This document shows positions 239 through 33,020 of a stretch of 39,282 bases of DNA, in pieces. The notes under the pieces are model-generated. The model saw only the letters and a program-made list of their open reading frames with translations. It had not been told where the DNA came from and made no database searches. This DNA comes from Minisyncoccota bacterium (lineage in GTDB: Bacteria > Patescibacteriota > Minisyncoccia > Phycocordibacterales > Phycocordibacteraceae): contig DASVLW010000015.1 of the NCBI GenBank assembly GCA_036384675.1, forward strand, positions 1 to 39,282. The letters are read 5' to 3'. How positions within the stretch are numbered: the first letter of the stretch is position 1; each line of letters opens with the position of its first letter. Position numbers and translations under genes: made by a program.

Positions 239-670
239 ATGAAGCTTGGACATCTGCGACGCGGTTTCACCCTCATCGAACTCCTCGTCGTGATCGCGAT
301 TATCGGCATCCTCTCGTCCGTCGTTCTCGCCTCGCTCAACACGGCGCGCACGAAGGGCAATTACGCGGCGGTGAAGTCGAACCTCTCGACCATCCAGACG
401 CAGGCGGAACTTGACTACGACGCCGCGCCGAACAGCTACGGCACCGTCACGTCCGCCGGCACCTGCGGCGGCACCGGCATGTTCGCGGACAACACCATCC
501 TCGGCGCTGTCGCTTCGGCGCGCAGCGCGGGCGGTACGATGAGCTGCAACACCAACGGCACGGCATACGTAGTGTGGTCCACGACATCGGGTGCGACGTG
601 GTGCATCGACAGCCGCGGCGTCTCGACGACGACCATTCCAGGCTCGAGCAGCGCGACGTCCTGCTACTAA
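239..670 (+). CDS. Type IV pilin (major pilin candidate, paralogue 1) with a prepilin-type N-terminal cleavage/methylation signal
   Basis: MKLGHLRR-GFTLIELLVVIAIIGILSS class III signal (G/F cleavage site, Glu at +5). Small size, and a C-terminal Cys pair (WCIDSRG...SCY). The ATG at 239 is preferred over the GTG at 128 because it gives a short basic leader. Confidence 0.9.
   Translation: MKLGHLRRGFTLIELLVVIAIIGILSSVVLASLNTARTKGNYAAVKSNLSTIQTQAELDYDAAPNSYGTVTSAGTCGGTGMFADNTILGAVASARSAGGTMSCNTNGTAYVVWSTTSGATWCIDSRGVSTTTIPGSSSATSCY
266..405 (+). repeat. 140-nt block 100 percent identical to 846-985 (N-terminal coding part of pilin paralogues 1 and 2)
   Basis: Base-by-base comparison of the two stretches. 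A second identical 54-nt block is at 581-634 = 1161-1214. Confidence 0.95.
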
Positions 671-806: not shown

Positions 807-1247
807 ATGATCAATACCCACCAGCGCCGCGCTCTCGAACGAGGCTTCACCCTCATCGAACTCCTCGTCGTGATCGCGATTATCGGCATCCTCTCGTCCG
901 TCGTTCTCGCCTCGCTCAACACGGCGCGCACGAAGGGCAATTACGCGGCGGTGAAGTCGAACCTCTCGACCATCCAGACGCAGGCCGAGCTCGACTACGA
1001 TGCTGCCAACAGCTACGGAGCGAATACCTCGACCGACGCCTGCACCGGCTCGACCGGCATGTTCGCCGACGCGACGGTCCTCGGCGCTATCCGTTCGGCG
1101 GCGAGCGCGGGCGGCACCATGAAGTGCAATTCCACCGCAAGCGCGTATGCCGTCTGGTCAACGACATCGGGTGCGACGTGGTGCATCGACAGCCGCGGCG
1201 TCTCGACGACGACCGTTCCAGGAACCGGACAGACACAGTGCTACTAG
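807..1247 (+). CDS. Type IV pilin (major pilin candidate, paralogue 2)
   Basis: MINTHQRRALER-GFTLIELLVVIAIIGILSS signal. The N-terminal 60 aa and C-terminal WSTTSGATWCIDSRGVSTTT are shared with pilin 1, while the central region diverges. Confidence 0.9.
   Translation: MINTHQRRALERGFTLIELLVVIAIIGILSSVVLASLNTARTKGNYAAVKSNLSTIQTQAELDYDAANSYGANTSTDACTGSTGMFADATVLGAIRSAASAGGTMKCNSTASAYAVWSTTSGATWCIDSRGVSTTTVPGTGQTQCY
846..985 (+). repeat. Second copy of the 140-nt identical block (see 266-405)
   Basis: Direct sequence comparison. Confidence 0.95.
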
Positions 1248-1344: not shown

Positions 1345-2070
1345 ATGTTCGTTTTAGGCGCGATACTCGCGAGCTTCGCGGGCGTCATCGCGGGGCGCCT
1401 TAACACGGGGCAGTCATGGGCGCGCGGCCGCTCCCGGTGCGACGCCTGCGCGCGCACGCTCGCACTCGCGGACCTCTTCCCGGTGCTCTCATGGCTCGCC
1501 TCAGGCGGACGCTGCCGCGGCTGCGGCGCCCGGATACCGGTCGCAAGCCCGCTCGGCGAAGCGGCGCTCGGCGCCGCGTTCGCGTGGGCGTACCTGAGTA
1601 TCGGCTTCGCGCCCGCACTCCTGCCGTTCCTCGCTGCGCTGGTGGTGCTGTGCGCGCTCGTGCTTTATGATCTGGCCCACACCATCGTCCCGCCGGGCCT
1701 GTCCGCGCTCCTCGCGCTCCTCGCGCTCGCGTATGCCGCCGTCGCGACCGCGAGCTGGGCGTCGTTCGGTCTCGCGCTCGCTATCGCCGGCGCCATCGCG
1801 CTCGCACTCGCGCTGCTGCACCTGCTGTCGGGCGGCCGCGCCATGGGACTCGGCGACGCGCCGGTCGCGTTCTCGCTCTCGCTGCTTGCGGCGCCGTACG
1901 CGCTTGCCGGCCTCGCGTTCTCGTTCTGGATAGGCGCGGCCGTCGGCGTGCTCATCCTCGCGGGAAAGCCCCGGGGACAGCGGGCGGGCACGGAAGTCCC
2001 GTTCGTTCCATTCCTCGCCGCAGGATTCCTGCTCGCGTGCTTTACTCATATAAATCCTTTCCCATGGTAG
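1345..2070 (+). CDS. pilD: Prepilin peptidase (A24 family, PilD-like)
   Basis: N-terminal CDAC...CRGC zinc-type motif, polytopic Ala/Leu-rich membrane body, candidate catalytic Asp contexts LYDLAHT and GLGDAP. Embedded between pilin genes. The start is taken at ATG 1345 (in-frame GTG 1321 is possible). The longer ORF from 1147 overlaps pilin 2 and is rejected. Confidence 0.85.
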   Translation: MFVLGAILASFAGVIAGRLNTGQSWARGRSRCDACARTLALADLFPVLSWLASGGRCRGCGARIPVASPLGEAALGAAFAWAYLSIGFAPALLPFLAALVVLCALVLYDLAHTIVPPGLSALLALLALAYAAVATASWASFGLALAIAGAIALALALLHLLSGGRAMGLGDAPVAFSLSLLAAPYALAGLAFSFWIGAAVGVLILAGKPRGQRAGTEVPFVPFLAAGFLLACFTHINPFPW

Positions 2071-2498
2071 CTATCCGCCCGCATCGCCCCCGAGTCCTCC
2101 GCACCGGCTTCACGCTCGTCGAGCTGCTCGTCGTGATCGCCATCATCGGCATCCTCTCGACCATCGTGCTCGTGAGCCTCAACATTGCGCGGAACAAGGG
2201 CATCATGGCTTCCATGCAGACCAATCTGCACACGCTCCAGATCGAAGCGGAGATATATTACGCAAACAACGGCAACAGCTACGGTACGACCGCGGCGGGA
2301 ACCACGACTGCCAATTGCGCGAGCGCGATGTTCTCGGCCGATTCGGCGATAGCAAGCGCCCTGCAGGAAGCGCGGCAGACCGGCGCGGCCGTATCGTGCG
2401 GCGCACAGGGCAGGTATTACAGCGTCTCGGCTTCCGGGAGCGCGGGCACCTGGTGCGTCAACAACGACGGGCTCGCGACGACGACCCCCGGCTGCTAG
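2064..2498 (+). CDS. Type IV pilin (paralogue 3, divergent)
   Basis: MVAIRPHRPRVLRT-GFTLVELLVVIAIIGILST signal and a C-terminal Cys pair (WCVNNDG...PGC). Its start overlaps the peptidase stop (ATGGTAG). Confidence 0.88.
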   Translation: MVAIRPHRPRVLRTGFTLVELLVVIAIIGILSTIVLVSLNIARNKGIMASMQTNLHTLQIEAEIYYANNGNSYGTTAAGTTTANCASAMFSADSAIASALQEARQTGAAVSCGAQGRYYSVSASGSAGTWCVNNDGLATTTPGC

Positions 2499-2549
2499 CG
2501 AAGATATAGGCACCCGCGCCTGTTGGTAGGGAAGCCGCGAGGGCTTAGG

Positions 2550-5500
2550 ATGGTGGTAATGCCCGCCTTGTTCCATGCGCGCCTGAAGCGCTTGCAGCGT
2601 ATGAACGACCGGAAGCCGCTCCGGGGCTTCACGCTCATCGAGATGCTCGTCGTGCTCGCCATCATCGTCGTCATCAGCGCCATCGTGTTCACCGGGGAGA
2701 ACAATTTCAACCGCTCGTTCTTCATCACCAACACCGTGTATGACGTCGCGCTCACCCTGCGCCAGGCGCAGACGTACGGTCTCTCGAGCCAGGCGTACGG
2801 GGCGACGCAGAATGCGGGATACGGCATTTATATAAGCAATGAGTCGCCGTCGACGTACGTCATGTTCGCCGACGTGGGCGGCAGCGATCCGCCGGACAAC
2901 TGCGACACCGGCACGGCCGGGACCCCGACCGCGAAGCCTGGCAACTGCCTCTATGACGGCGCGGGGGAGCAGGTCCAGTCGTTCACGCTCGGCAACGGCT
3001 TCGCCATCACGAATTTCTGCATCGTCCCGGCCAGCGGCTCGGCGAATTGCTATACGCCCGCAGACGATCCCACGCAGGCGCTTTCCATGGTGTTCTCGCG
3101 CCCCAATGAAGACGCCATCATCAATACCGTGTCGGGCAGCGGCAGCGCGACGGTCGCGACGAGCGCATGCTTCACCATATCCGACTCCGTCGGCGACAGC
3201 CGCTACGTATCGGTCGCGCAATCCGGGCGCGTTGCCATCGCGGCGGGCTGTGATGCCGACCAGCTGAGCGGCGGAGGCGGCAGCACCGGCGGCGACGGCA
3301 GCGGCGGACTCGGCGGCGGTTCACCCGCGCCGCACTGCACGCTCGTCGCGGACCCTTCTTCCATTTCGGCGGGAGATTCTTCGGGGCTTACGCTCAATTC
3401 GACCAACGCGACGAGCGCATCCATAGACCATGACGTGGGTCCGGTCGGCGTCAACAGCACGAAATCCGTCTCGCCGACGGAGACGACGCTCTATACGGCG
3501 ATTGTGAACGGGCTCGGCGGCTCGAGCACCTGTACGGCGGCCATAACGGTCACGGCGCCGCAGCCGACATGCACGCTCACCCTGTCGCCGACATCGATAT
3601 CTGCCGGCGGCTCCTCGACGCTCACGTGGGACACGACGGGCGCCACGAGCATCAATATCGACAACGGCATCGGCAGCAAGACGCCGGTCGGCCACGGCAC
3701 CATGACGGTATCGCCGTCGAGCGACACCACATATACCGCGACGGCGGCGGGGCCGGGCGGCAGCACCAATTGCACCGCGTCGCTCAGCGTCACGGCGTCG
3801 CAGCTGAAGACTATTTTCCTCACGTCCGGTACATCGTGGACTGTGCCGGCAGACTGGGACAATGCCCATAATTCCATCGAGGTCATCGGCGGCGGCGGCT
3901 CGGGAGCGGCAGCGGGTGTCGGTTCGCACGGTGGCGGTGGCGGTGGCGCGTACGCGCTCGTCTCCGCCCGCACGCTGACGCCGGGCGCACACATCACGTA
4001 CCAGGTCGGTCCGGGCGGCACGGGCGTCGCGCAAAGCAATCCGGGCAATGGCGGCGGCGACACCTATTTCAACGGTACCGGCACGACCTGCGCGAGTCAG
4101 ATGGTTTGCGCCAAGGGAGGGCAAGGCGGACAGGTCGCGAGCGCCGGCGCTGGCGGTGCCGCGGCAAGCTCAATTGGTTCAACCAGATATTCCGGCGGTG
4201 CCGGCAGTTACGGGGCTGGTGGCGGATCGAACGGCGGCGGCGCAGCCGGGCCTAATGGCGACGGTGGTGCGGGCACTAGCAGCGCGGGCGGCACGGCGGA
4301 TGCGGGCGACGGCGGTGCCGGCGGCAAATCCGGATTGCTTCCAGGCGGCAATGGCACCGAATGGGATTCGACTCACGGTGCCGGCGGCGGCGGATACAGT
4401 GTCGCAGGTGTCAACACGACCGGAGTCGGCGGCAATTACGGCGGCGGCGGCGGCCGCGGAAACACCCAGAGCGCGGCAGGAGCGCAGGGTCTCATCGTCA
4501 TCATGTATGGCGGAAACGCCGGCGCGGGCGGCGTCGGGGGCGGCACCGAAACCCAGCCGGCTCCTACTTGTACGCTCACTGCGTCGCCGACCGCGATAAA
4601 CGCCGGCGGCTCGTCGATGCTCACTTGGACGACAACGGATGCGACGTCGATCACGATCAGCGGCGGCGTCGGATCGGTGACGCCGGTATCGGGCGGCTCC
4701 ACGACCGTCTCGCCGACCGTCGATACTACGTACACTGCGACAGTCAACGGCGCGGGCGGCAGCGGCAACTGCCAAGCGACGACCATAACCGTCAAGCACA
4801 CCACTCCTCAGACGATATTCCTGACATCTGGGTTCACGTGGACCGTGCCAAGCGATTGGAGTACCACCAATAAGGTCGAAGTAATCGGGCCAGTCGGGGT
4901 AGGCGGCATAGGAAGCAACAATGGTTCCGGAGGCGGCGGCGGCGGCGGATATGCAAGCGTGTCGAATCTTGCGCTCACTTCCGGAACATCGGTCAGCTAT
5001 AGCGTGTCCGGCAATTATTCCTACTTCGGAGCCAGCAGCTGCAATAACGCCTATGTATGCGCCGCCGCCGGCGGCGACGGAGGCTCGAGCGGCACCGCGG
5101 GCGCCGGCGGCGCGGGAATCGTGGGCTCCGTCCTCTTCACGGGCGGCAATGGCGGTACCGGCGATGGCGGCGGCTTCCTGGCCGGATTCGGCGGCGGCGG
5201 CGGCGGCGCGGCCGGCCCGCATGGCAAAGGAGCCAACGGCGGCAATGCCGTGTCTGGAACAGCCGGCGGCGCTGGCGGCAGAGGCGACAACGGTTCAGGA
5301 GGCACCGGAGGTGCGGCAGGGGCCGATGGCAATGCCGGTACCGAATGGGACTCGACGCATGGGTCGGGCGGCGGCGGCGGCGGAGCGAACGGCAACGGCG
5401 GAGGGGGAGGAGGTGGGGGTTTCATAAGCAAATTGCCTGACGATGGCAGTGCGTCCATGCCGGCGTATATGCTTGCCGCTGACAGCCGCCTCGCCTTCGG

Positions 5501-5663
5501 CTGGCTCGACGCTTCGCCGCTCAGGATCGCGGCCGGCGTCGGAGGCAGTGGCGGCGGCCTTTACGGCGCGGGCGGCGGCGGCGGGGGTTCCGGCGGCCCG
5601 GGCATCATCGTTATCACGTATACTCCTGCAACAGGCGGCGGGCATCCTCCAGTATCGCCATAG
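2550..5663 (+). CDS. Giant chimeric pseudopilin. It combines a prepilin signal, a FimT/GspH-like minor pilin domain, three Cys-bounded Ig-like repeats and two glycine-rich domains.
   Basis: RGFTLIEMLVVLAIIVVISAIVF signal. An internal module is duplicated (see findings). Start is uncertain: ATG 2550 has GAGGG 6 nt upstream, and ATG 2601 would give a 9-aa leader. The end is firm. Confidence 0.85.
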   Translation: MVVMPALFHARLKRLQRMNDRKPLRGFTLIEMLVVLAIIVVISAIVFTGENNFNRSFFITNTVYDVALTLRQAQTYGLSSQAYGATQNAGYGIYISNESPSTYVMFADVGGSDPPDNCDTGTAGTPTAKPGNCLYDGAGEQVQSFTLGNGFAITNFCIVPASGSANCYTPADDPTQALSMVFSRPNEDAIINTVSGSGSATVATSACFTISDSVGDSRYVSVAQSGRVAIAAGCDADQLSGGGGSTGGDGSGGLGGGSPAPHCTLVADPSSISAGDSSGLTLNSTNATSASIDHDVGPVGVNSTKSVSPTETTLYTAIVNGLGGSSTCTAAITVTAPQPTCTLTLSPTSISAGGSSTLTWDTTGATSINIDNGIGSKTPVGHGTMTVSPSSDTTYTATAAGPGGSTNCTASLSVTASQLKTIFLTSGTSWTVPADWDNAHNSIEVIGGGGSGAAAGVGSHGGGGGGAYALVSARTLTPGAHITYQVGPGGTGVAQSNPGNGGGDTYFNGTGTTCASQMVCAKGGQGGQVASAGAGGAAASSIGSTRYSGGAGSYGAGGGSNGGGAAGPNGDGGAGTSSAGGTADAGDGGAGGKSGLLPGGNGTEWDSTHGAGGGGYSVAGVNTTGVGGNYGGGGGRGNTQSAAGAQGLIVIMYGGNAGAGGVGGGTETQPAPTCTLTASPTAINAGGSSMLTWTTTDATSITISGGVGSVTPVSGGSTTVSPTVDTTYTATVNGAGGSGNCQATTITVKHTTPQTIFLTSGFTWTVPSDWSTTNKVEVIGPVGVGGIGSNNGSGGGGGGGYASVSNLALTSGTSVSYSVSGNYSYFGASSCNNAYVCAAAGGDGGSSGTAGAGGAGIVGSVLFTGGNGGTGDGGGFLAGFGGGGGGAAGPHGKGANGGNAVSGTAGGAGGRGDNGSGGTGGAAGADGNAGTEWDSTHGSGGGGGGANGNGGGGGGGGFISKLPDDGSASMPAYMLAADSRLAFGWLDASPLRIAAGVGGSGGGLYGAGGGGGGSGGPGIIVITYTPATGGGHPPVSP

Positions 5664-5667: not shown

Positions 5668-7005
5668 ATGTCGAACCATCATTCTCAGCGCGGATACACC
5701 CTTATTGAACTCATCGTTTCAGTGGGCATATTCAGTATCGTGATGCTGCTCGCGTCCGGCGCGTACCTTTCGCTCATCAGCTACACGCGCGAAGCGCGCG
5801 CCGTGAGCACCGTCATGACGAGCCTTTCATACGGCATCGACCAGATGAGCCGCGAGATACGCACGGGCACCGATTACCAGTGCGGCACCGGCGGCTGCGC
5901 GAACGCATCGTCAATAACGGTTACGAACGACCAGGGGCATACGGTGAGCTACCTGCTCGCGGACGGTGCCATCGCGCGCTGCGTCGACGAATCCGTCTGC
6001 ACGGCGGCTATCGCCGTCCCGCTCACGGATCCGTCCATCGACGTCACGAGCCTCGTTTTCAATGTAAAAGGCAACACGTCGTCGAGCGACGGCGTGCAGC
6101 CCTACGTGACCATGACCGTGCGCGGCGAGGCGGCGGTCGCCGGGGAGTCTCCGGTGCCGTTTTCCATAGAAACATCCGCATCGCAGCGCACGCTCGACCT
6201 CGGCGGCTCTTCGGGCGGTTCCGGCGGCAGCGGGGATGACGGAGGCGGAGACACCGGCGGCGATACGTTCGCTACCGGCGGCACGGTGACGCAGAGCGGG
6301 GGATACACCATTCATACGTTCACGTCGAACGGCACCTTTACACCGACGACATCCGGCACGGTCGACGTGCTCGTCATCGGCGGCGGCGGCGGGGGAGGCA
6401 GCGGCAACAGCACGCAGTGCGTGATGGGCGGCGGCGGCGGCGCGGGAGGATTCGTCTATCAGGCCGGTGTCGCGGTGAGCGCCCAGTCTTACTCCATCAC
6501 GGTCGGTGCCGGCGGCCAGGGCGGATGGAGCGGCGCGCTCAATAATGGTGTCAACGGCGGGAGCAGTTTCTTCGGTTCGGTCGTCGGCGCGAACGGCGGC
6601 GGCGGCGGCGGATATGGAAACTGCAGCGGCGCAGGCGGTTCGGGTTCCGTGGGTGCGTCCGGCGGCGGCGGCGGATACGGCACCGGCGGCACGGTCAGCG
6701 GCGGCGCGGGAGGAACCGGCGGCCATAACGGTGCGACGAGCCAAACCGGCGGCACGTCTGGCGGCGGCGGCGGCGCGGGCGCTGCGGCGACCAGCGGTAT
6801 CGGCGGCGCGGGCGCATCCAACACCATATCGGGCTCAGCCGTTACGTATGCCACCGGTGGGCAGGGCAACACCACCGGTCTCACGGCAGGCGTCACGTCG
6901 CCGGCCGCGGCGGCAAACACCGGCAACGGCGGCGCAGGCGGCTGGAGCGCGACGGGCGGCAACGGCGGCTCGGGCATCGTGATAATCCGCTACCCGACGC
7001 CATGA
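5668..7005 (+). CDS. PilW/GspJ-like pseudopilin fused to a C-terminal glycine-rich domain
   Basis: MSNHHSQR-GYTLIELIVSVGIFSIVML signal. The C-terminal part (nt 6268-7002) begins GGYTIHTFTSNGTFTPTTSGTVDVLVIGGGGGGG and ends GGSGIVIIRYPTP, like the domains of the preceding gene. The ATG lies 5 nt after the upstream stop. Confidence 0.88.
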   Translation: MSNHHSQRGYTLIELIVSVGIFSIVMLLASGAYLSLISYTREARAVSTVMTSLSYGIDQMSREIRTGTDYQCGTGGCANASSITVTNDQGHTVSYLLADGAIARCVDESVCTAAIAVPLTDPSIDVTSLVFNVKGNTSSSDGVQPYVTMTVRGEAAVAGESPVPFSIETSASQRTLDLGGSSGGSGGSGDDGGGDTGGDTFATGGTVTQSGGYTIHTFTSNGTFTPTTSGTVDVLVIGGGGGGGSGNSTQCVMGGGGGAGGFVYQAGVAVSAQSYSITVGAGGQGGWSGALNNGVNGGSSFFGSVVGANGGGGGGYGNCSGAGGSGSVGASGGGGGYGTGGTVSGGAGGTGGHNGATSQTGGTSGGGGGAGAAATSGIGGAGASNTISGSAVTYATGGQGNTTGLTAGVTSPAAAANTGNGGAGGWSATGGNGGSGIVIIRYPTP

Positions 7006-7547
7006 ACCCTATGAATTACCGCGCGCCGCATGCAAAGCACCAGGGCTTCACCCTCGTCGAGACGCTGGTGGCTATCGCCATATTCACTATCGCCATCGTC
7101 GCGCCGTTCACTGCCGCGAGCCGCGCGCTCGCCGCCGCGGCCATCGCGCGCGATACGCTCGTCGCGACGAACCTCGCGCAGGAAGGCCTCGAAGGCGTGC
7201 GCGAATTGCGCACGAACGGATACCTGACTGACTCGAGCGACCCCGATCCGGACCTCGACCAGTACCTGGCCGACTGCATCTCGCCCAAGATATGCGACGT
7301 GAACAGCGCGCTCACGACGTACGCCTGCACGGGCAGCGCGTGTTCCGCGCTCTACCTCAACACGACGACCGGCGCATACACGCACACCGCAAGCGGCAGC
7401 ACCGTCTCGCCGTTTTCCCGCACCATCAGCATCCAGAAGAGTCCGAACGGTCAGTCCGGCACCGAGCGCGCGACGGTTACGGTGACGTGGACGTCGCACG
7501 GCGCGCATTCCGTAATCCTAACTGAAGATTTCTATGACTGGTTCTAA
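7002..7547 (+). CDS. PilV/GspI-like minor pseudopilin
   Basis: HQ-GFTLVETLVAIAIFTIAIVAPF prepilin-type signal. ATGA overlap with the upstream gene. Confidence 0.85.
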   Translation: MNPMNYRAPHAKHQGFTLVETLVAIAIFTIAIVAPFTAASRALAAAAIARDTLVATNLAQEGLEGVRELRTNGYLTDSSDPDPDLDQYLADCISPKICDVNSALTTYACTGSACSALYLNTTTGAYTHTASGSTVSPFSRTISIQKSPNGQSGTERATVTVTWTSHGAHSVILTEDFYDWF

Positions 7548-8049
7548 CGCATCATCGCGCTCGCGGGGCTTCACGCTCATCATCGCGGTCATACTCGCGG
7601 CGGTCGCGACCGCGATAGGGCTCGCGCTCTCTTCCATAGCCTTCAAGAGCGTCCGGCTGTCGGACACGGCACAGGACTCGTCCGCCGCGTTCTATGCCGC
7701 CGACACGGGCCTCGAATGCACGCTGTTCGCCGACCAGAAGCAGGCGGCGTTCGAGTACGCGACGCACGCGAGTCCGCTCGCTGCGGCGACGATGACATGC
7801 ATAACGCCTTCGGGCACGCAGTCCGTCACTCTTACGGCATCAACGTTCAACGGCTCGACTCTAAAGTTCGTCTCGCAGTCGCCGAGCGGCTATTCCGGCG
7901 GATGGTTCCCGGTGGCGGGCGGCGGCTGCGCCCGCATCACGGCGTTCAAGCAGTCGTCGAGCGCGACGACGCTCTATGCCGAGGGCCTGAACACCTGCGA
8001 CACGAGCAGTCCGCGGCTCGTGGAGCGCGGTATCTACTCATATTATTAA
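7534..8049 (+). CDS. PilX-like pilus assembly/minor pilin protein
   Basis: SRSR-GFTLIIAVILAAVATAIGLAL hydrophobic N-terminus without Glu+5, followed by AFYAADTGLE, as in the PilX N-terminal domain. It overlaps the upstream gene by 14 nt. Confidence 0.75.
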   Translation: MTGSNASSRSRGFTLIIAVILAAVATAIGLALSSIAFKSVRLSDTAQDSSAAFYAADTGLECTLFADQKQAAFEYATHASPLAAATMTCITPSGTQSVTLTASTFNGSTLKFVSQSPSGYSGGWFPVAGGGCARITAFKQSSSATTLYAEGLNTCDTSSPRLVERGIYSYY

Positions 8050-13121: not shown

Positions 13122-13436
13122 AGCGGGGTAGAGGAGAGGTACCTCGGGAGGCTCATGTGAACAACGTGACCCTATCCGGCAACGGATAGCGGAAAACTCT
13201 CTAAATTGCTGGAACGCCGTGAGAGCTTCCTGTGCTACAGCGTGATCCGAAAGGATGGGCGCGAATGCGTGAAAAACAGGAAGATTCGGTAATCAGCAGC
13301 CAAGTCTCGATAATTCGGGGAAGGTTCAGAGACTATAATGGGAGAATCCCTCCGGGATTATGGGATAGTCCATTCCTGCTGGAAACAGCAGGTGCAAAAG
13401 AACCTCCAGACGCCGGTTCGATTCCGGCCCCCGCAA
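13122..13436 (+). tRNA. tRNA-Met(CAU), initiator-like, interrupted by a group I intron (exons 13122-13156 and 13401-13436, 71-nt mature tRNA)
   Basis: Manual cloverleaf. Acceptor agcgggg/ccccgca (1:72 A.A unpaired), U8 A9, D arm gagg-agaggta-cctc (A11:U24). Anticodon stem ggagg/cctcc with loop CUCAU|AA restored by joining the exons. Variable loop agac, T arm gccgg-ttcgatt-ccggc, discriminator A. CCA is not encoded. Confidence 0.85.
13157..13400 (+). ncRNA. Group I intron (244 nt, no ORF) in the tRNA anticodon loop after position 36
   Basis: - The 5' exon ends in U, and P1 can pair ggctcat with gtgaccc (U.G at the splice site).
- P2 is ctatccg-GCAA-cggatag.
- Conserved core elements are present: P aaattgctggaa (13203), Q aatcagcagcc (13291), R ggttcagagacta (13323) and S gatagtcc (13364).
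- P5 is cttcctgt/acaggaag.
- P9 is cctgctg-GAAA-cagcagg.
- The terminal nucleotide is G at 13400. Confidence 0.85.
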
Positions 13437-13510
13437 CAAGGTTGTGATAGTGAATGAGTACCGGTAGGCATCAGAATCTTGGTACTGTACCGATGCCCGT
13501 CAAATCGAGA

Positions 13511-13702: not shown

Positions 13703-14689
13703 ATGAATCGGAGATATCTGCTGCCATACATCGCGGTGCTCGCGCTTGCGGTCGCGACGGTCTGGTACCTGCACGGCGCGCATCTGCCGGTGCTCGAACC
13801 GGCGGGACCCGTCGCCGCCGCAGAATTGCGCGTCATGGTGATAACGACCCTGCTGTGCGCCATCGTCGTCATACCGGTCTTCGTCCTGCTGTTCTATTTC
13901 GCGTGGAAATACCGCGCGGGCAACACGGCGACGAACGTCGACCACCGCCCCGACTGGGATCACGACAACTGGATAGCCGAGACGCTCTGGTGGCTCGTGC
14001 CCGCGGCAATCATCGCATGCCTGGCCGTGCTCGCGTGGCGAAGCTCGTACGCGCTCGACCCGTACAAGCCGCTCGATTCAGACGCGCCCGCGCTGACCAT
14101 CCAGGTCGTCGCGCTCGACTGGAAATGGCTCTTCATCTATCCCGAGCAGGGGATAGCCAGCGTGAATCTGGTCGAATTCCCGGCGGATGTACCGGTGCGC
14201 TTTGAGCTTACCGCGGACGCGCCGATGAACTCGTTCTGGGTGCCGAGCCTCGGCGGGCAGATCATGGTGATGCCGGGCATGCAGACGCAGCTCAATCTCA
14301 TGGCGAGCCGCGTCGGCGACTACCAGGGCGCGTCGGCGAACATCAGCGGCGACGGCTTCGCGGGCATGGCGTTCACCGCGCGGGCGGTATCACAGGACGA
14401 TTTTAGTGCGTGGGTCGCGTCGGCGCAGGACTCCGCGCGCCCGCTCACGCTCGATGCGTACGGCGCGCTTGCCGCGCCGAGCTCGTATAATCCGGTCATG
14501 CTGTATTCATCGGCAGACACCGGCCTGTTCGGGACGATCATAAATCGCGTGATGATGCCCGAACAGGGGGAATTCCCGGCGGCGATGCCTGCCGGCGATA
14601 TGCCGGATATGAACGGGATGTCCGGCATGGACATGCGCGGGATGGATATGAGCATGCCGATGCATATGAACACGAATACCGCGCCATGA
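13703..14689 (+). CDS. cyoA: Cytochrome bo-type ubiquinol oxidase subunit II (CuA-less) with a Met-rich C-terminal tail
   Basis: Two N-terminal TM helices and a cupredoxin region NSFWVPSLGGQIMVMPGMQTQL...GASANISGDGFAGM. This matches the quinol-oxidase form, in which the CuA Cys/His ligands are replaced. Confidence 0.93.
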   Translation: MNRRYLLPYIAVLALAVATVWYLHGAHLPVLEPAGPVAAAELRVMVITTLLCAIVVIPVFVLLFYFAWKYRAGNTATNVDHRPDWDHDNWIAETLWWLVPAAIIACLAVLAWRSSYALDPYKPLDSDAPALTIQVVALDWKWLFIYPEQGIASVNLVEFPADVPVRFELTADAPMNSFWVPSLGGQIMVMPGMQTQLNLMASRVGDYQGASANISGDGFAGMAFTARAVSQDDFSAWVASAQDSARPLTLDAYGALAAPSSYNPVMLYSSADTGLFGTIINRVMMPEQGEFPAAMPAGDMPDMNGMSGMDMRGMDMSMPMHMNTNTAP

Positions 14690-16671
14690 GCTGGAACTTG
14701 CTTATATTCGGTGAGCTATCGTGGTCGGTGTTCCCGCAGAACCCTATCGCGCTCGGCGGCGCGGCGTTCATGGTCTGCTGCGCGCTCCTGGTACTTGCCG
14801 GCATTACATACCTCGGGCGCTGGAAATGGCTCTGGAGCGAATGGCTCACGTCGCTTGACCCGAAGCGCCTCGGCGTCATGTACATCGCGGTATCCGGCGT
14901 GATGCTCGTGCGCGGCGGCATCGACGCGCTCCTCATGCGCGCGCAGCAGGCGACATCCGTCGGCGCGTCGGACGGCATCCTCGCCGCGAATCATTTCCAG
15001 CAGATATTCTCGGCGCACGGGTCGATCATGATCTTCTTCGTCGCGATGGGGTTCATGTTCGGCATCATCAACCTCGTGCTGCCGCTCCAGATAGGGTCGC
15101 GCGATGTCGCGTTCCCGTTCCTGAACTCCCTCAGCTTCTGGCTCTTCGCCGCCGGCGCAGTGCTCATCAACCTCTCGCTCATCGTCGGCGACTTCTCGAC
15201 CGCCGGGTGGCTTTCGTATCCGCCCTTGTCCGAGCTCGCGTACAGCCCCACGACCGGCGTCGACTACTGGATATGGAGCCTGCAGATAGGCGGGCTCGGG
15301 AGCCTGCTCGCGGGGATAAATTTCCTCATCACCATCATAAAGATGCGCGCCGCCGGCATGACGCCCATGCGCATGCCGGTGTTCGTCTGGAGCGTCGCCG
15401 GGTCTATGTCGCTCGTCGTCTTTGCGTTTCCGATACTCACCGCGACTCTCGCGCTCTTGGCGCTCGACCGCACGCTCGGCATGCATTTCTTCACCGCGGG
15501 CGGCGGCGGGAACATGATGATGTACGTGAACCTGATATGGGCGTGGGGGCACCCGGAAGTGTACATACTCATCCTGCCGGCGTTCGGCATATTCTCGGAA
15601 GTCGTCCCGGCGTTCTCGGGCAAGAAGCTTGCGGGATATTTCTCGATGGTGCTGTCCATCTGGGCCATCGTGTTCCTCTCGTTCCTGGTCTGGCTGCACC
15701 ACTTCTTCACGATGGGCGCCGAGGCCGACGTGAATGCATTCTTCGGCATCATGACGGCGGTCATCGCGATACCGACGGGCGTCAAGATATTCAACTGGCT
15801 GTTCACGATGTACCGCGGCCGCATCCGCTTCTATACGCCGATGCTCTGGTTCATGGGCTTCGTCGTTCTCTTCACGCTCGGCGGCGTGGCGGGCGTCGTG
15901 CTCGCCGAGCCGCCGGCCGACTACCAGCTCCACAACAGCCTCTTCCTCGTCGCGCATTTCCACACCATGATCGTGAGCGGCGTCCTGTTCGGCTACTTCG
16001 CCGGCATCACCTACTGGTTCCCGAAGATATTCGGCTTCCGGCTCGACGAGAGCCTCGGACGCAAGGCGTTCTGGTGTTGGCTGTTCGGATTCATACTCGC
16101 GTTCGGCCCGCTCTACATATTGGGATTCATGGGGGCGACGCGCCGGCTCGACCACTATGCGGCCGGGCTCGGATGGCAGCCGCTATTCATCGTTGCCGGC
16201 GTCGGCGTGCTCATTATCGCGCTCGGATTCGCGTTCCAGGTCGCGCAGCTCGTGCGGAGCGTGCGGCAGCGCCGCATGAATATGGATACGACGGGCGATC
16301 CGTGGGATGGCCGGACGCTCGAGTGGTCGACGGCTTCGCCGCCGCCCGCGTACAACTTCGCGGTGCTGCCGGCCGTCCATTCGCTCGACGCGTTCTGGGC
16401 GGCGAAGCAGGAAGGCCTTTCTCCCGAAGCGCGCTATGAAGACATCCGCATGCCGAAGAACACGGGCGCCGGCATCGTCATCGCGGCGTTCGTATTCCTG
16501 TTTGGGTTCGGTATCGTCTGGCATATGTGGTGGCTCGCGATTCTCGGCATAGCCGGCGCGTTCATATGCGTACTCGTCCGGACATTCGCCGAGGACACGG
16601 AATACGTGCTGCCTGCGGCTGAAATCCGGAAGCAGGAAGAAGCCCGCGGCCGTCCGGTCGTAGCCGTATGA
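14686..16671 (+). CDS. cyoB: Cytochrome bo-type ubiquinol oxidase subunit I (heme-copper oxidase catalytic subunit)
   Basis: 661 aa. WAWGHPEVYILILPAFG, HHFFTMG and FLVAHFH motifs. ATGA overlap with cyoA. Confidence 0.97.
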   Translation: MSWNLLIFGELSWSVFPQNPIALGGAAFMVCCALLVLAGITYLGRWKWLWSEWLTSLDPKRLGVMYIAVSGVMLVRGGIDALLMRAQQATSVGASDGILAANHFQQIFSAHGSIMIFFVAMGFMFGIINLVLPLQIGSRDVAFPFLNSLSFWLFAAGAVLINLSLIVGDFSTAGWLSYPPLSELAYSPTTGVDYWIWSLQIGGLGSLLAGINFLITIIKMRAAGMTPMRMPVFVWSVAGSMSLVVFAFPILTATLALLALDRTLGMHFFTAGGGGNMMMYVNLIWAWGHPEVYILILPAFGIFSEVVPAFSGKKLAGYFSMVLSIWAIVFLSFLVWLHHFFTMGAEADVNAFFGIMTAVIAIPTGVKIFNWLFTMYRGRIRFYTPMLWFMGFVVLFTLGGVAGVVLAEPPADYQLHNSLFLVAHFHTMIVSGVLFGYFAGITYWFPKIFGFRLDESLGRKAFWCWLFGFILAFGPLYILGFMGATRRLDHYAAGLGWQPLFIVAGVGVLIIALGFAFQVAQLVRSVRQRRMNMDTTGDPWDGRTLEWSTASPPPAYNFAVLPAVHSLDAFWAAKQEGLSPEARYEDIRMPKNTGAGIVIAAFVFLFGFGIVWHMWWLAILGIAGAFICVLVRTFAEDTEYVLPAAEIRKQEEARGRPVVAV

Positions 16672-17285: not shown

Positions 17286-17665
17286 ATACCGGCGATTATT
17301 TCGAAAACATCGGCGCATGGCCGCGGGGCACGGGCATTCGCGGGTATGCGTGGGGATTCGCCCTGTCGCTTCTGTTCACGCTTGCCGCGTATGTCCTCGC
17401 CGCGCACCACCTGCTCGCCCCGCGGCCGCTCGCCCTGCTGCTTGCGGCATTCGCGCTCGCGCAGGCGTTCGTGCAGCTTGCGTGCTTCCTTCATGTGGGG
17501 AAGAGCGCCGGCGCGCGGGAGCGGCTCTACATGCTCGGCAGCTTCGGGCTCGTCATCCTGATACTGATCGCGGGCTCGATATGGATCATGTTCAGCCTGA
17601 ACGCGCGCATGATGCCCGGCACGATGCAGATGGAACAATATATGCAGAGCCAGCAGGGGATATGA
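17282..17665 (+). CDS. cyoD: Cytochrome bo-type ubiquinol oxidase subunit IV
   Basis: 127 aa, three TM helices, in the expected position, ATGA overlaps on both sides. The longer ORF from 16751 overlaps cyoC and is rejected. Confidence 0.85.
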   Translation: MNTGDYFENIGAWPRGTGIRGYAWGFALSLLFTLAAYVLAAHHLLAPRPLALLLAAFALAQAFVQLACFLHVGKSAGARERLYMLGSFGLVILILIAGSIWIMFSLNARMMPGTMQMEQYMQSQQGI

Positions 17666-18525
17666 CCGGCATGTTGAAGGACTATTATCGCCTCACGAAG
17701 CCCGGTATCGTGTACGGCAACGCGTTCACGACGCTCGCCGCGTTCCTCTATGCTTCCGGCTGGCACGCGAGCGCCGCGCTGTTCTGCGCGACGCTCGCCG
17801 GCAGTATGCTCGTCGTCGCGTCGGCGTGCGTATTCAATAATTATCTCGATCGCGGCATCGACGCGAAGATGGAGCGTACGAAGAACCGTCCGCTCGTGAC
17901 CGGCGCGATATCGGGCGCGAACGCGATCGCGTACGGAAGCGCGCTCGGCATCATCGGCGTCGCGCTGCTCTCTATATATGCGAACCCGCTCACGGCGGCG
18001 ATCGCGCTGTTCGGATTCCTTTCATACGTCTTCGCGTACGGCTGGGCGAAGCGCGCGTCCTACTGGGGCACGGTTGTCGGCAGCATCCCCGGCGCGGTGC
18101 CCGTCGTCGTGGGCTATACCGCCGTAACCGGCCGGATTGATGCGGCTGCCGCGACGCTCTTCTTCATCCTCGTCTTCTGGCAGATGCCGCATTTCTACGC
18201 CATAGCGACATACCGCCTCGACGAATATGCCGCGGCGGGCATCCCCGTTCTTCCCGCGCGAAAGGGAATACGCGCGGCCAAAATCCATATCCTCCTCTAT
18301 ATCATCGCGTACCTCGCCGCAGCGTCCGCGCTCACGGCGCTCGGTTATGCGGGCTATGCCTATCTCGCCGCGGTGCTACTCATTGGGCTGATGTGGCTCT
18401 GGCGCGCCGGAAAAGGATTCAGGGCGCCGGACGATGCGGCGTGGGCGCGCGGCGTGTTCCGGTTCTCGCTCATCGTCCTGGTAACCTTCTCAGCAGCGCT
18501 TTCGGTCGCATCGCTGCTGCCATAA
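17662..18525 (+). CDS. cyoE: Protoheme IX farnesyltransferase (heme O synthase)
   Basis: LKDYYRLTKPGIV..., NNYLDRGIDAKMERTKNRPL (UbiA-family Asp-rich motif), polytopic. ATGA overlap with cyoD. Confidence 0.93.
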   Translation: MTGMLKDYYRLTKPGIVYGNAFTTLAAFLYASGWHASAALFCATLAGSMLVVASACVFNNYLDRGIDAKMERTKNRPLVTGAISGANAIAYGSALGIIGVALLSIYANPLTAAIALFGFLSYVFAYGWAKRASYWGTVVGSIPGAVPVVVGYTAVTGRIDAAAATLFFILVFWQMPHFYAIATYRLDEYAAAGIPVLPARKGIRAAKIHILLYIIAYLAAASALTALGYAGYAYLAAVLLIGLMWLWRAGKGFRAPDDAAWARGVFRFSLIVLVTFSAALSVASLLP

Positions 18526-28894: not shown

Positions 28895-29704
28895 CTAGGC
28901 CAGCTGCCTGCCAAGCAGGAACGCTTCCTGCCCGGGTCCATCGCGCCGTCTTACAAACACCGCCAGCGCGTCTTCCGGAGCGTAGATATTCTTTCCGCCG
29001 TCCGTTCCTATCAATTCGCCTTTTCGTGCTGGTTCGAAATCCGCGAATTCTCTCGACGGAGAAAAATCGACCTCAGCGACGTGGCAGAAAAACATGTGAA
29101 CGTGCTTTTGATCGGGAACGGCAGGGACGGGTGCCGTTTCAATAATGCCGAGGTGCGCGAGGAATTGCGTGATGGAACTGGTCGCTCGATGAACCTGCGC
29201 GCCGCCGTCGAACACGGAACCGCACTCGATGCCGAGGGACAGCTTACCGAGACGGCTCATGTATCCGTCCGTTGCGCCCGGCTCAACCGCGTCCCAGCCG
29301 TCGGTTATGAGCGGGAAATCCAGCGTCTTGGCCAGCGCGCGCGATTCGTTTCCTTCGCATATGACGAATGGCGTGGCAGAGCGGCTGTTGCTCGCATGGA
29401 TATCAAGCAGGGCATCGCACTCCTTGAGAAGCTCCATCAACTCGCGGGCCCTGTTGTCCTCATAGGTTGAGCCGGTATTGTTTTCCAGAAAGCAGCGATT
29501 CATATTCTTTTCCACGAAACGCAGGTTCTGCGCGATCGCAAGGGGATTGGCTTCGACAAAATAAACCGTGCCGCACTCCAGTTTTAGATTCGACGCAGCC
29601 TGCCGCACAGCATCGACGCCGACGCGCTCGTTGCCGTGCACCCCGCCGAATACGGCGGCCGTCTTGCCGGGCCGCCCGCTGTCTATTCTCGTTACTCCTT
29701 CCAT
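28895..29704 (-). CDS. Succinylglutamate desuccinylase/aspartoacylase family zinc hydrolase (M14-like)
   Basis: VFGGVHGNERVG (HxxE zinc motif), DIHAS and GIECGS are typical of the AstE/AspA family. Confidence 0.85.
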   Translation of the reverse strand: MEGVTRIDSGRPGKTAAVFGGVHGNERVGVDAVRQAASNLKLECGTVYFVEANPLAIAQNLRFVEKNMNRCFLENNTGSTYEDNRARELMELLKECDALLDIHASNSRSATPFVICEGNESRALAKTLDFPLITDGWDAVEPGATDGYMSRLGKLSLGIECGSVFDGGAQVHRATSSITQFLAHLGIIETAPVPAVPDQKHVHMFFCHVAEVDFSPSREFADFEPARKGELIGTDGGKNIYAPEDALAVFVRRRDGPGQEAFLLGRQLA

Positions 29705-29800
29705 CTGACCAGTCTACCCTATTTACCGAGCAGTCCTTGCCGGCGTAAGGGAAGTGGAATCACTATTTTGCGAACGTGAGAGCACTCGATTGGGCGGGCC

Positions 29801-29829
29801 TTTACATTTTCTATTCCAGGTCGTATATT
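29801..29829 (+). promoter_or_regulatory. Sigma70-like promoter
   Basis: TTTACA, 17-nt spacer, TATATT. A GAGGAG Shine-Dalgarno lies 7 nt before ATG 29861. Confidence 0.55.
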
Positions 29830-29860
29830 TTATTCCAGTAGTTTCTTTGAGGAGATTGCC

Positions 29861-30379
29861 ATGAACAAGCAGCTCATGCCGCCGAAGGGCGGACGCATAG
29901 AGACTCTCACTGTCTCCATTGATCCAAAACGCATGTGGGAAGACTTGCTGCGTGCCGGAGCGCCCGATACGCCCGCAAGGGACCTGGAACCGTGTGTGAT
30001 CTGGAACGAAGCGCTCATGCCGCCTGAAAATATCGAGGCGGGAAGGGCGGAGATTATCCTCGTGAATTTCGGGAGCCAGTGCGAATACAGTACGGCCGAA
30101 GCATTCGGTACCCGGAATCATCTCGCGCCCGTTCACCCTCGTCACTGCTTGGCTATTGCTGAGCAGTATCCCCGCCTTCACAAGAAACTCGGCGTGAAAT
30201 GGTGCTCGGTCGTCCGGCCTCGCACGTTTACTCACCCCGAGCAGCGGAAAGAGCTGATCTTCCACGTCCTGTTCGCGGACGATGAGCGCAGAGCTCAGGT
30301 GGTGAGCATGTGGCGGCGCGTTTACACCTGGGAGTGGGGTGCGTTCCTGCGGCTGCCCGAGCGGTTGCGTCTCGCGTAA
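29861..30379 (+). CDS. Hypothetical protein
   Basis: 172-aa ORF with a good SD and promoter. Lower GC than the upstream region. No family was recognised. Confidence 0.7.
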   Translation: MNKQLMPPKGGRIETLTVSIDPKRMWEDLLRAGAPDTPARDLEPCVIWNEALMPPENIEAGRAEIILVNFGSQCEYSTAEAFGTRNHLAPVHPRHCLAIAEQYPRLHKKLGVKWCSVVRPRTFTHPEQRKELIFHVLFADDERRAQVVSMWRRVYTWEWGAFLRLPERLRLA

Positions 30380-30402
30380 GCCTTGTGGCGTGTGAATATA
30401 AC

Positions 30403-30428
30403 GAGCCGGCTCTGAAACGAGCCGGCTC
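30403..30428 (+). terminator. Hairpin formed by two copies of the self-complementary decamer gagccggctc
   Basis: gagccggctc-tgaaac-gagccggctc read directly. There is no U-tract. Confidence 0.4.
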
Positions 30429-30508
30429 GAACTGTCTCTCAAACCTTAATTCCTTACCGAGAACGAACGCCTCGTTTCCGTGCCACTTATTATTCATAGG
30501 ATAAGCAA

Positions 30509-30540
30509 TAAGCGCATCCTCTTGCATGAGGATGCGCTTA
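30509..30540 (-). terminator. Hairpin terminator 14 nt downstream of the minus-strand GNAT gene
   Basis: taagcgcatcctc-ttgcat-gaggatgcgctta, a 13-bp stem. Confidence 0.7.
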
Positions 30541-30553
30541 CGACTCGAGAATC

Positions 30554-31078
30554 TCATCGAACCAACAGCTGGCACTGGGCCAGCACGGCGCGATGCGGAC
30601 AGTGAGCCTTTTGTTCATCAGTCTCCCATCGATCACAGGGCCCGCATACTACCGCGTAGGGAGCGGCGTGCGGCCATTCTGATCGAGAAGCTTCTCTGAA
30701 GCCGTGTTTGAGCGCGAGCGTGACGACGCGTGGATTGTGCGTAACGACAAACCCATGCGCCCCGGGCGGCAAGAGATCAAGCCGGCCGCGATAGATCATG
30801 TGAGCCAGGCCCAAGCCCGGCCCGCGAAACTCGTTCGCGACCCACAGCGAGCCCAGCTCGAACCATGTACTATCGGATGTCGGCCACAGGACGCCGATTC
30901 CGATAATGCGCTCGGATTGTGCGGCCGAAACATCGCCCTGCCGGACCACGATGGCTCGTTTTTGTTCGTATGCCATGCGCAGGGCGTCGGGCGCGATGCG
31001 TTCTTTCAGAAAGACCTCATCTCCGTCATTCTCTCGGCTCATTTCGTCCGAAAGAGTCTGCCATATATTCCGGTCCAT
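30554..31078 (-). CDS. GNAT family N-acetyltransferase with a Cys/His-rich C-terminal tail
   Basis: ELGSLWVANEFRGPGLGLAHMIY (acetyl-CoA binding R/Q-x-x-G-x-G/A). AAGGAGA SD 6 nt before ATG 31078. The tail is VVCGPCDRWETDEQKAHCPH. The longer ORF to 31258 is rejected. Confidence 0.8.
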   Translation of the reverse strand: MDRNIWQTLSDEMSRENDGDEVFLKERIAPDALRMAYEQKRAIVVRQGDVSAAQSERIIGIGVLWPTSDSTWFELGSLWVANEFRGPGLGLAHMIYRGRLDLLPPGAHGFVVTHNPRVVTLALKHGFREASRSEWPHAAPYAVVCGPCDRWETDEQKAHCPHRAVLAQCQLLVR

Positions 31079-31212
31079 GACCGTCTCCTTGACGTGTGTT
31101 ACCCCGGATGGAGAATACCAGAAATATGCCGTATTACAAGTTATGCCGGATCCGGTAAAAAATAAGGGGTGCCCGGCCAACGGCCGAACACCCCTTGATA
31201 CGGATCGTCGCG

Positions 31213-32937: not shown

Positions 32938-33020
32938 TGATTTCTCCTATATCACGTTCTGAAATTGTTTTACCAGCTTGATTAGAGTCTGTCAATTCTC
33001 GATAAATGCATCACGCGTCG

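Follow-up and report, generated by a model that had tools for sequence, protein, structure and literature searches.

What purpose would a type IV pilin of more than 1,000 residues serve, and what are the domains that lengthen it? The question is raised by a gene at positions 2550–5663 (+) of contig DASVLW010000015.1 (assembly GCA_036384675.1)—a stretch of 39,282 nucleotides (nt), hereafter the window, from an uncultured Candidatus Paceibacterota bacterium (Patescibacteria, or candidate phyla radiation, CPR) represented by a metagenome-assembled genome (MAG); the housekeeping proteins of the contig bear the same name. The encoded protein, here called the giant pilin, consists of a prepilin leader, an α1 helix with a β-rich head, two immunoglobulin (Ig)-like modules, a glycine-rich domain (Gly1), a third Ig-like module and a second glycine-rich domain (Gly2), in that order. 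The chimeric make-up that an initial annotation had read from the sequence—a single protein that joins a prepilin signal and a pilin head to Ig-like modules and a pair of glycine-rich domains—is thereby corroborated. Our analysis shows that the glycine-rich domain is homologous to a phage fibre protein, and we consider it probable that the giant pilin is a modular minor type IV pilin that presents binding heads of the phage type on the pilus tip and so recognises partner cells or surfaces. The features of the gene are as follows (pLDDT, predicted local distance difference test; dN/dS, ratio of non-synonymous to synonymous substitution rates; TNF, tumour necrosis factor; aa, amino acids).

2550–5663 (+), putative giant modular minor pilin (alternative starts 2559 and 2601; 1,037 aa from 2550; L104 orthologue; dN/dS 0.056)
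2550–2627 (+), class III (prepilin) leader, ending in G26, with cleavage before F27 (FTLIE, E at +5; PF07963, TIGR02532 and sequence)
2628–3269 (+), pilin module with α1 helix (aa 29–78), all-β head (aa 90–231) and six Cys (AlphaFold pLDDT ~85–97; invariant Cys and Gly columns in the family)
3270–3323 (+), Gly/Ser-rich flexible linker, aa 241–258 (sequence; pLDDT <50 at aa 243–255)
3324–3557 (+), Ig-like module 1, Cys263/Cys328 (pLDDT >90, seven β-strands; 53–56% identity to modules 2 and 3; tandem-Ig Foldseek matches)
3558–3797 (+), Ig-like module 2, Cys341/Cys408 (AlphaFold, Foldseek, repeat identity; phrog_2155)
3798–4514 (+), glycine-rich domain 1, Gly_rich_2 type A, predicted TNF-like β-sandwich with polyglycine lattice (PF21722; AlphaFold; Foldseek; profile against the PDB)
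4515–4553 (+), Gly-rich linker (sequence; low pLDDT)
4554–4793 (+), Ig-like module 3, Cys674/Cys741 (pLDDT >90; 68% identity to module 2)
4794–5627 (+), glycine-rich domain 2, type A paralogue (45% identity to Gly1, E 2e-56, 169 bits)
5421–5534 (+), 38-aa non-glycine insert in Gly2 (FISKLPDDGSASMPAYMLAADSRLAFGWLDASPLRIAA), aa 958–995, hydrophobic/aromatic, at a family-wide insertion hot spot

Glycine-rich domains and phage receptor-binding fibres

Both glycine-rich domains belong to one sequence family. Gly1 matches PF21722 (Gly_rich_2) with 30.2 bits against a cut-off of 24.3, covering model positions 3–225 of 226, and Gly2 counts as Gly_rich_2 through its paralogy to Gly1 (E 2e-56). An alignment of the two copies over 232 columns shows 45% identity and scores 169 bits, compared with a maximum of 83.6 and a mean of 69.7 among 200 shuffles of Gly2; the motifs that they have in common extend beyond glycine (TIFLTSG..WTVP.DW, GTEWDSTHG and IVI.Y). 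With G-G columns left out, identity is 30% between Gly1 and Gly2 and 41% between Gly1 and another relative, P0066. The two domains are therefore not each other's nearest relatives, so the pair is either old or was acquired separately, and a recent internal duplication of the glycine-rich unit is rejected on the same figures. The initial annotation had described the whole arrangement as recurring, which is right for the repeated architecture and wrong if taken to mean that Gly1 and Gly2 are closest kin.

The retrieved Gly_rich_2 homologues split into two subtypes. Type A follows the pattern FLTSGTSWTVPADWN...IEVIGGGG...GTEWD.THG.GGGG...GLIVITY and includes both units of the giant pilin, whereas type B, with the pattern GGYTIHTFTSSGTFT...LVVGGGGGG...GGSGIVIIRYPTP, includes the unit encoded by the next gene. 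An initial phmmer screen for proteins combining a pilin with a glycine-rich domain missed most of them, since type B is too diverged from type A, and separate iterated profiles resolved the subtypes. A profile built from the two type-A copies of the window and run against 1.84 billion cluster representatives retrieved 3,117 proteins at E≤1e-3, with 1,286 at E≤1e-10. The family alignment shows conserved glycine blocks, interrupted by insertion hot spots after domain positions 141, 162, 179, 204 and 220.

For a structural view, Gly1 was modelled alone with AlphaFold from a 71-sequence type-A alignment, which gave a pLDDT of 93.9 and a predicted template modelling score of 0.90. The model contains about nine strands and long confident stretches that DSSP assigns to neither helix nor strand—compatible with a polyglycine lattice, without being proof of one. 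Its best Foldseek match in the PDB is the fibre protein gp24 of cyanophage Pam3 (7ypx_A, E 1.1e-7, template modelling (TM) score 0.57 under both normalisations), followed by the tail tip of mycobacteriophage Bxb1 (9d93, E 2e-7) and then by glycine-rich/TNF-like domain entries of ALK and LTK (E 1e-3 to 5e-2); nothing in the PDB was significant past these three groups. In a viral model library, 237 entries matched Gly1 at E≤1e-3, among them cyanophage gp38 and proteins annotated as tail fibres in coliphage Goslar and in Achromobacter phage Mano. The type-A sequence profile, searched against the PDB, also finds Pam3 gp24 (7ypx_A, E 1.7e-10; 7yfw_a, 4e-10) in a collinear alignment that begins at the first strand and extends as far as the terminal G.qGiIvvqY strand. 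Since the sequence profile reaches Pam3 gp24 by itself, the relationship is one of homology, beyond a shared fold. The resemblance to phage tail-fibre proteins suggested in the initial annotation thus has three footings: the Pfam Gly_rich_2 match, the AlphaFold and Foldseek comparison with Pam3 and Bxb1, and the profile match to gp24.

We found 174 relatives of the domain on viral contigs, in one of which (L023) the gene follows head genes and adjoins a tail-fibre PHROG. Searched against PHROGs, Gly1 weakly matches phrog_863 ('tail fiber assembly', E 5.6e-4), and no match was obtained for Gly2. In the Pam3 fibre, the homologous region has been described as a TNF-like sandwich with loops arranged in four layers of a glycine-rich lattice; its conserved stem and variable distal tip recognise the host receptor, and it resembles gp38 of Salmonella phage S16 and ALK (PMC9608196). 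In Bxb1, polyglycine-rich proteins are located on the central fibre at the tail tip, and the polyglycine-rich domains of mycobacteriophage tails have been proposed to contact lipids (PMC13252515). On the evidence of the models, the giant pilin would share with Pam3 gp24 (7YPX/7YFW), S16 gp38 and Bxb1 9D93 a TNF-like β-sandwich with a glycine-rich loop lattice and variable distal loops. There are also differences: gp24 forms a trimeric fibre shaft, whereas the giant pilin has no evident N-terminal trimerising helix bundle or fibre chaperone, carries two diverged copies per chain and is just ~22% identical to gp24. The TG/GRD of ALK/LTK is of the same fold class as Gly1 and serves as a monomeric ligand-binding unit, but it is a much weaker match (TM ~0.28), belongs to an animal receptor tyrosine kinase and gave no detectable match at the sequence level.

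Beyond phages, the type-A domain is found at the N-termini of RHS/Tc-toxin-like proteins and of large surface proteins with signal peptides, a distribution which suggests that the unit is a general targeting or receptor-binding module common to phage fibres, polymorphic toxins and pilins. Type-A domains commonly come as tandem pairs in unrelated carriers (P0069, aa 37–574; P0087, aa 1122–1585; P0047, P0051 and others), for example at the N-terminus of an RHS-repeat protein from Bradyrhizobium and in a Tc-toxin-like protein with TcdB_toxin_midN/SpvB Pfam domains.

Fusions to pilins recur in public data, with at least 13 type-B and two further type-A examples, none of them characterised, which answers the question raised at the outset of whether pilin-fused versions occur elsewhere. 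Type B is the commoner on pilins (13/119 retrieved). The two type-A cases are P0125 (463 aa), with a head like that of the window's downstream pilin, and P0472 (495 aa), with a distinct GYSFVE-type head; as the window, P0125 and P0472 have three different heads, type A must have joined no fewer than three pilin scaffolds in separate events. The slot that the giant pilin occupies is itself variable in architecture: the syntenic relative P0003 has the head with six Ig-like modules (657 aa), L105 the head with three (490 aa), and the window and its orthologue L104 the head with Ig-Ig-Gly-Ig-Gly.

A change is also seen in the next gene, which encodes a 445-aa pilin with a type-B module. When the window copy (5668–7005) is compared with that of L104 (3562–4929), the heads are identical, with no non-synonymous differences and a dS of 0.08, whereas from the Gly linker onwards (~nt 6240) the type-B modules show only ~70% identity, with a dS of 0.63 and a dN of 0.17–0.27; dS reaches 0.98 in aa 201–320, against ~0.02 in the flanking genes. 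This abrupt step in dS and dN at the linker indicates recombinational replacement of the type-B module. Such a swap between near-identical strains is the behaviour expected of a specificity determinant.

The reading frame, pilin module and Ig-like repeats

The open reading frame (ORF) spans 2523–5663 (+) in a single, stop-free frame of 1,046 codons counted from the first TTG. The ATG at 2550, preceded by AGGG at 7–10 nt, gives a translation of 1,037 residues; 2559 (the ENA call) and 2601 (the NCBI call, HEX7651229.1) are alternative starts. This ambiguity has no effect on the mature protein, because F27 is the first mature residue, following ...KPLRG/FTLIE, and cleavage after G26 leaves 1,011 aa whichever of the three is used. 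The gene is present on an ENA contig of 39,443 bp and in an NCBI third-party MAG record (HEX7651229.1), where its product name is merely that of a prepilin-type domain protein. A set of motifs had been quoted at the outset, and all of them are found in the translation from 2550: RGFTLIEMLVVLAIIVV, three PxPxCTL...GGSxxC...TV repeats, KTIFLTSGTSWTVPADW...IEVIGGGGSG, GNGTEWDSTHGAGGGG and GAQGLIVIMYGG in the first part, and QTIFLTSGFTWTVPSDW, GTEWDSTHGSGGGG and GPGIIVITYTP in the second. The module boundaries first proposed were likewise accurate.

Two further assemblies bear on the gene. In L104, from an independent run (Logan SRR11658454), an orthologue of 1,035 aa with 99.4% amino acid identity occupies the equivalent operon position, and L103, a contig assembled from a sibling sample, shows 99.9% nucleotide identity from within Gly2 across the junction into the next gene. 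The window and L104 copies differ by 32 synonymous and five non-synonymous changes (7:0 in Gly1 and 8:1 in Gly2), with a dN/dS of 0.056: the giant pilin gene is under strong purifying selection. The agreement of L104 and L103, together with this ratio, excludes a frameshift fusion, a chimeric join or a spurious GC-rich ORF. Moreover, the repeat copies share at most 70% DNA identity, so that repeat-driven mis-assembly by collapse or expansion is no concern, and tandem-repeat finding gave just short GGC-type runs.

The prepilin signal is borne out by two models, PF07963 (N_methyl; aa 25–47, 30.7 bits against a cut-off of 21.2) and TIGR02532 (28.6 bits against 16.3). The leader, short and hydrophilic, ends in ...KPLRG and is followed by the hydrophobic α1N segment (FTLIEMLVVLAIIVV); with G at −1, F at +1 and E at +5, the whole has the features of a class III signal. 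In the AlphaFold prediction, a long α-helix (aa 29–78) packs on a head whose strands span aa 90–231. This pilin part measures ~215 aa, rather than the ~190 aa first estimated, and the FimT/GspH-like label that it had been given is not supported. The TIGR01708 (GspH) match, confined to aa 25–77, reaches 26.5 bits where the cut-off is 80, and none of the 38 head-family members has a GspH or FimT Pfam match. Searches of the PDB tell the same story: the head-family profile matched solved pilins over α1N alone, and the whole protein, as a single sequence, gave α1N matches to Geopilin alone. One head homologue is called 'FimT family' by NCBI, which is a label and no test of fold.

Most members of the head family are stand-alone pilins of ~220 aa whose sources are named Paceibacteria, Minisyncoccia, Kaiserbacteria or Parcubacteria. 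Among the matches listed, nine distant metagenomic loci match across the whole head in proteins of 187–293 aa that have no extensions. A metagenome scan that combined the head profile with a generic GFTL[IV]E pattern returned at least 37 loci, mostly unrelated pilins, a figure unfit for counting. The closest homologue, P0003 (head 56% identical, same synteny), has PilM, PilB, a response regulator, PilT and PilC encoded upstream; PilM, PilB, PilT and PilC at this locus indicate a retractile type IV pilus and no type II secretion system (T2SS). The term pseudopilin, used in the initial annotation, is accordingly abandoned, and a T2SS pseudopilin is rejected as a candidate on the presence of PilT and PilM in P0003.

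The three Ig-like modules (78–80 aa) are 53–68% identical to one another, with E-values of 1e-19 to 4e-23 under SEG masking and composition correction, so the two repeats and the third copy noticed originally are not a product of chance. AlphaFold renders them as seven-stranded sandwiches at aa 262–335, 340–415 and 673–749, each with a pLDDT above 90, in a full-length model built from a mixed 58-sequence alignment; in this model the head and Ig modules were confident and both glycine-rich domains failed (pLDDT ~35). The Foldseek listing for the full-length model consists of Ig-domain matches throughout, and its top PDB entries are arrays of tandem Ig domains from GhpA (the grappling-hook protein of Aureispira), Dscam, Fc receptors and titin. 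The Ig1–Ig2 region (nt 3324–3797) matches phrog_2155, a virion structural protein, with an E-value of 2.3e-28 and its best stretch over Ig2 (3558–3797). No model in the Pfam copy searched matches the repeats, although Cys-bracketed repeats of this kind are widespread: large surface proteins of Acidobacteria, Patescibacteria and other groups contain them by the hundred. Of the 16 Cys in the protein as a whole, the head accounts for six and every one of the five added modules for two, and the even number per module fits intramodule disulfides in an exported protein.

Proposed role at the pilus tip and competing explanations

If the giant pilin works as a tip-borne binding protein, the prepilin peptidase of its operon would cut the leader between G26 and F27, and the α1 helix and β-head would insert the protein into the pilus—most likely within a tip complex together with three co-encoded minor pilins. 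The C-terminal ~780 residues would then form a disulfide-stabilised string of beads in the order Ig, Ig, Gly-rich, Ig, Gly-rich, holding off the filament two diverged domains with a predicted TNF-like fold and polyglycine lattice, the same domain that tailed phages use at fibre tips for host receptors. The ligand of these heads may be a glycan, lipid or protein exposed on the surface of a partner cell, host cell or substrate; once it is bound, retraction of the pilus would draw the cell onto its target. Ligand or receptor binding would lie in the variable distal loops, and the Gly2 insert falls at one of the hot spots. As the neighbouring minor pilin has a third Gly_rich_2 module, of the other subtype, a single pilus tip would show several heads.

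The design has precedents. A survey of modular pilins counted upwards of 1,200 proteins with 264 different architectures, CPR bacteria contributing many of them (Raynaud et al. 2021; PMC8179133), and the giant pilin agrees with this class in having a pilin module, a Gly/Ser linker and modules that phage proteins, RHS/Tc-like toxins and surface proteins also carry. Its 1,011 mature residues surpass the 860-aa extreme of that survey (PMC8179133). The Streptococcus sanguinis modular pilins PilB (with a vWA module) and PilC (with a lectin module) are adhesins (PMC8179133); like the giant pilin, they are operon-encoded minor pilins and proposed tip adhesins in which a short flexible linker joins an N-terminal pilin module to non-pilus modules, but they have one added module each (vWA or ConA-lectin), compared with five here (three Ig-like and two predicted TNF-like/polyglycine). 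Closer in taxonomy are PilX1 and PilX2 of the Saccharibacteria member TM7x, also Patescibacteria minor pilins with added C-terminal domains; host binding by the thin pilus depends on PilX2 (PMC12206443). Their additions are a β-jelly-roll and a β-propeller rather than Ig and polyglycine modules, they come from another Patescibacteria class, and no sequence relationship to the giant pilin was noticed, though no comparison aimed at one was made. Enterotoxigenic Escherichia coli CofB, Vibrio cholerae TcpB and PilY1 likewise are large tip components that hold extra β-rich binding domains on a linker (PMC8179133), as proposed for the giant pilin. CofB and TcpB differ in belonging to type IVb systems and in acting as trimers whose ends are lectin-like, PilY1 is a tip adhesin outside the pilin class, and no homology of these proteins to the giant pilin was detected.

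The adhesin or host-contact role suggested at the outset is the most reasonable reading. What the analysis establishes is the integrity of the ORF, the selection on it, the prepilin signal, the operon context, the predicted module folds, the homology to a solved phage receptor-binding fibre and the shuffling of modules. Several points count on the other side. Pilus incorporation, tip position, adhesin role and ligand are deduced from sequence and models, and the fold of the glycine-rich domains, including the polyglycine-II lattice geometry, is a predicted one. The fibre domain is trimeric in Pam3, and the pilin would present it as a monomer, though monomeric use is known for S16 gp38 and ALK. 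The head lacks a significant GspH, FimT or FimU match past α1N. Because the contig ends at the first pilin, the window has neither the assembly ATPase nor the platform genes, and the retractile-pilus context is taken from syntenic relatives. Finally, a pilin fusion occurs in only two of the best 150 type-A family representatives (P0125 and P0472), and the usual setting of the domain is not a pilus.

In a first alternative, the giant pilin is a membrane-anchored surface protein that uses the prepilin pathway for export and anchoring and is never polymerised, its Ig/Gly array working at the cell surface, for instance in a host contact zone. Archaeal sugar-binding proteins carry pilin-type signals, and a mature subunit of 1,011 aa is bulky for a filament into which its incorporation is proposed from sequence. 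The type-A proteins themselves are mostly large surface proteins with signal peptides or transmembrane anchors: this holds for 84/141 representatives and for 21/21 genome loci (Kaiserbacteria, Paceibacterota, Saccharibacteria, Hyphomicrobium, Labrys, Micavibrio and others), none of which has type A on a pilin. Against this, the gene lies within a minor-pilin operon, with a small pilin before it, three minor pilins after it and a prepilin peptidase upstream; its head belongs fully to a pilin family that usually stands alone at ~220 aa; and the characterised modular pilins of comparable design are pilus-borne (PMC8179133). We regard the alternative as unlikely.

A second alternative keeps the protein in the pilus and assigns its glycine-rich domains to other ends, such as abiotic or regular surfaces, biofilm matrix, or DNA for uptake. 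Patescibacteria pili have been implicated in DNA uptake. Antifreeze-type proteins contain glycine-rich polyproline II bundles (PMC13243192), and the flat faces of some antifreeze proteins are an example of what polyglycine-II lattices produce; the lipid contacts proposed for mycobacteriophage tail polyglycine domains (PMC13252515) would also suit such a function. However, receptor-binding fibre tips of phages are the nearest solved homologues by sequence as well as by fold, and the neighbouring module, turned over by recombination, behaves more like a specificity determinant than like a generic binder of surfaces or DNA, which makes these other uses improbable.

The gene could also be the remnant of a phage, that is, a tail-fibre gene captured from a prophage without a role in the pilus. 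The glycine-rich and Ig-like modules both have many phage relatives, yet no phage genes lie nearby (the flanks are pilins, LigA and GatA), strong purifying selection acts on the gene, which shares its frame with a conserved pilin head, and the best viral relatives (48–50% identity) are no closer than cellular ones (53–59%); we hold this origin to be very improbable, and a recent capture from a phage is rejected on the same identities. An artefact of assembly or annotation—a small pilin mis-joined or frameshift-fused to surface-protein genes, or a spurious ORF of the kind that high-GC DNA often yields, as might be suspected from a GC content of ~66% and GGC-rich runs—has next to no chance and is rejected, given the 1,035-aa ORF of the independent L104 assembly, the 3' end confirmed by L103, in-frame homologues for every module, a dN/dS of 0.056 over all modules, repeat copies at most 70% identical in DNA, and, in P0003 and L105, a single frame running from the same head into the same Ig repeats.

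How much of this is new? Large modular pilins are an established class (PMC8179133) and pilin–Gly_rich_2 fusions recur in public data, so that the argument for novelty made initially is overstated, and 'categorically new' is not justified. Our literature search, which covered few subscription journals, found nothing relevant on PF21722/Gly_rich_2 or on CPR pilins with glycine-rich domains. New in the literature searched are a homologue of the phage fibre-tip/ALK-type module on a pilus subunit, the scale of five added modules and 1,011 mature residues, and two adjacent minor pilins that jointly bear three Gly_rich_2 heads.

Cultivated Patescibacteria live attached to other microbes, and their partner recognition is largely unknown. 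For Paceibacterota we know of almost no experimental handle on it, and the locus—with phage fibre-tip homologues on minor pilins, purifying selection, and a neighbouring module exchanged between near-identical strains—offers a concrete candidate for a recognition device. Should a pilus-tip binding role prove true, the modular-pilin principle would extend to a new binding fold; one module family would link pilus adhesins, phage receptor-binding proteins, targeting domains of RHS/Tc toxins and the ligand-binding domain of ALK; and pilus-tip modules would become a sequence-readable predictor of the partners or hosts of uncultured CPR cells. A bolder extension, which we put forward tentatively and with more doubt than confidence, is that Paceibacterota pili use the class of swappable receptor-binding heads known from phage fibres and polymorphic toxins on tip minor pilins, and that head exchange sets the host range of these episymbionts as receptor-binding-protein swapping does in phages. 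If a binding role is not confirmed, the giant pilin stays a well-documented extreme of pilin modularity.

The operon and its surroundings

The giant pilin is encoded in an operon with a prepilin peptidase and six further pilin-type genes:

239–670 (+), PilA-like small pilin 1, 143 aa, candidate major pilin (N_methyl E 2.7e-9; HEX7651225.1; 81% identity to pilin 2)
807–1247 (+), PilA-like small pilin 2, 146 aa, tandem paralogue of pilin 1 (N_methyl E 1.2e-8; HEX7651226.1)
1345–2070 (+), prepilin peptidase, PilD-like, 241 aa (A24_N_bact E 3e-21; Peptidase_A24 weak at 20.1 bits, under cut-off)
2064–2498 (+), small pilin 3, 144 aa (N_methyl E 9e-7; HEX7651228.1; 44–47% identity to pilins 1 and 2)
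5668–7005 (+), second modular minor pilin, 445 aa, with head (aa 1–175), Gly linker and type-B module (aa ~200–445) (N_methyl; PF21722 E 2e-17, 64.4 bits; HEX7651230.1)
7002–7547 (+), PilV/GspI-like minor pilin, 181 aa (N_methyl; TIGR01707 GspI and TIGR02523 PilV weak, under cut-off)
7534–8049 (+), PilX_N-domain minor pilin-like protein, 171 aa (PF14341 27.1 bits against a cut-off of 25.5; HEX7651232.1)

Homologues of the second modular minor pilin exist with the same architecture. The three small pilins, two of them 81% identical, make for several candidate major pilins in one operon. After the PilX_N-domain protein come LigA and then GatA.

Three other parts of the window deserve mention. 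From 29000 to 39282, GC content falls from 0.62–0.70 to 0.53–0.59 in a region with genes for ArgRS, an Orn/DAP decarboxylase-family protein and a histidine kinase, along with two tRNAs; this drop may reflect a compositional island or a join made in binning or assembly. A complete group I intron lies at 13144–13392 (+) (Rfam 72.9 bits, E 8e-17), and an intron-permitting ARAGORN run locates it in the anticodon loop of a tRNA-Met(CAT) at 13122–13437 (+), within a low-GC intergenic stretch. Respiratory oxidases are uncommon in such reduced genomes; here, genes for subunit II of a haem-copper oxidase (COX2 with COX_ARM, quinol-oxidase type) and for subunit I, as well as one for a UbiA-family prenyltransferase that may be a haem O synthase, are found at 13703–16671 and 17317–18525 (+).

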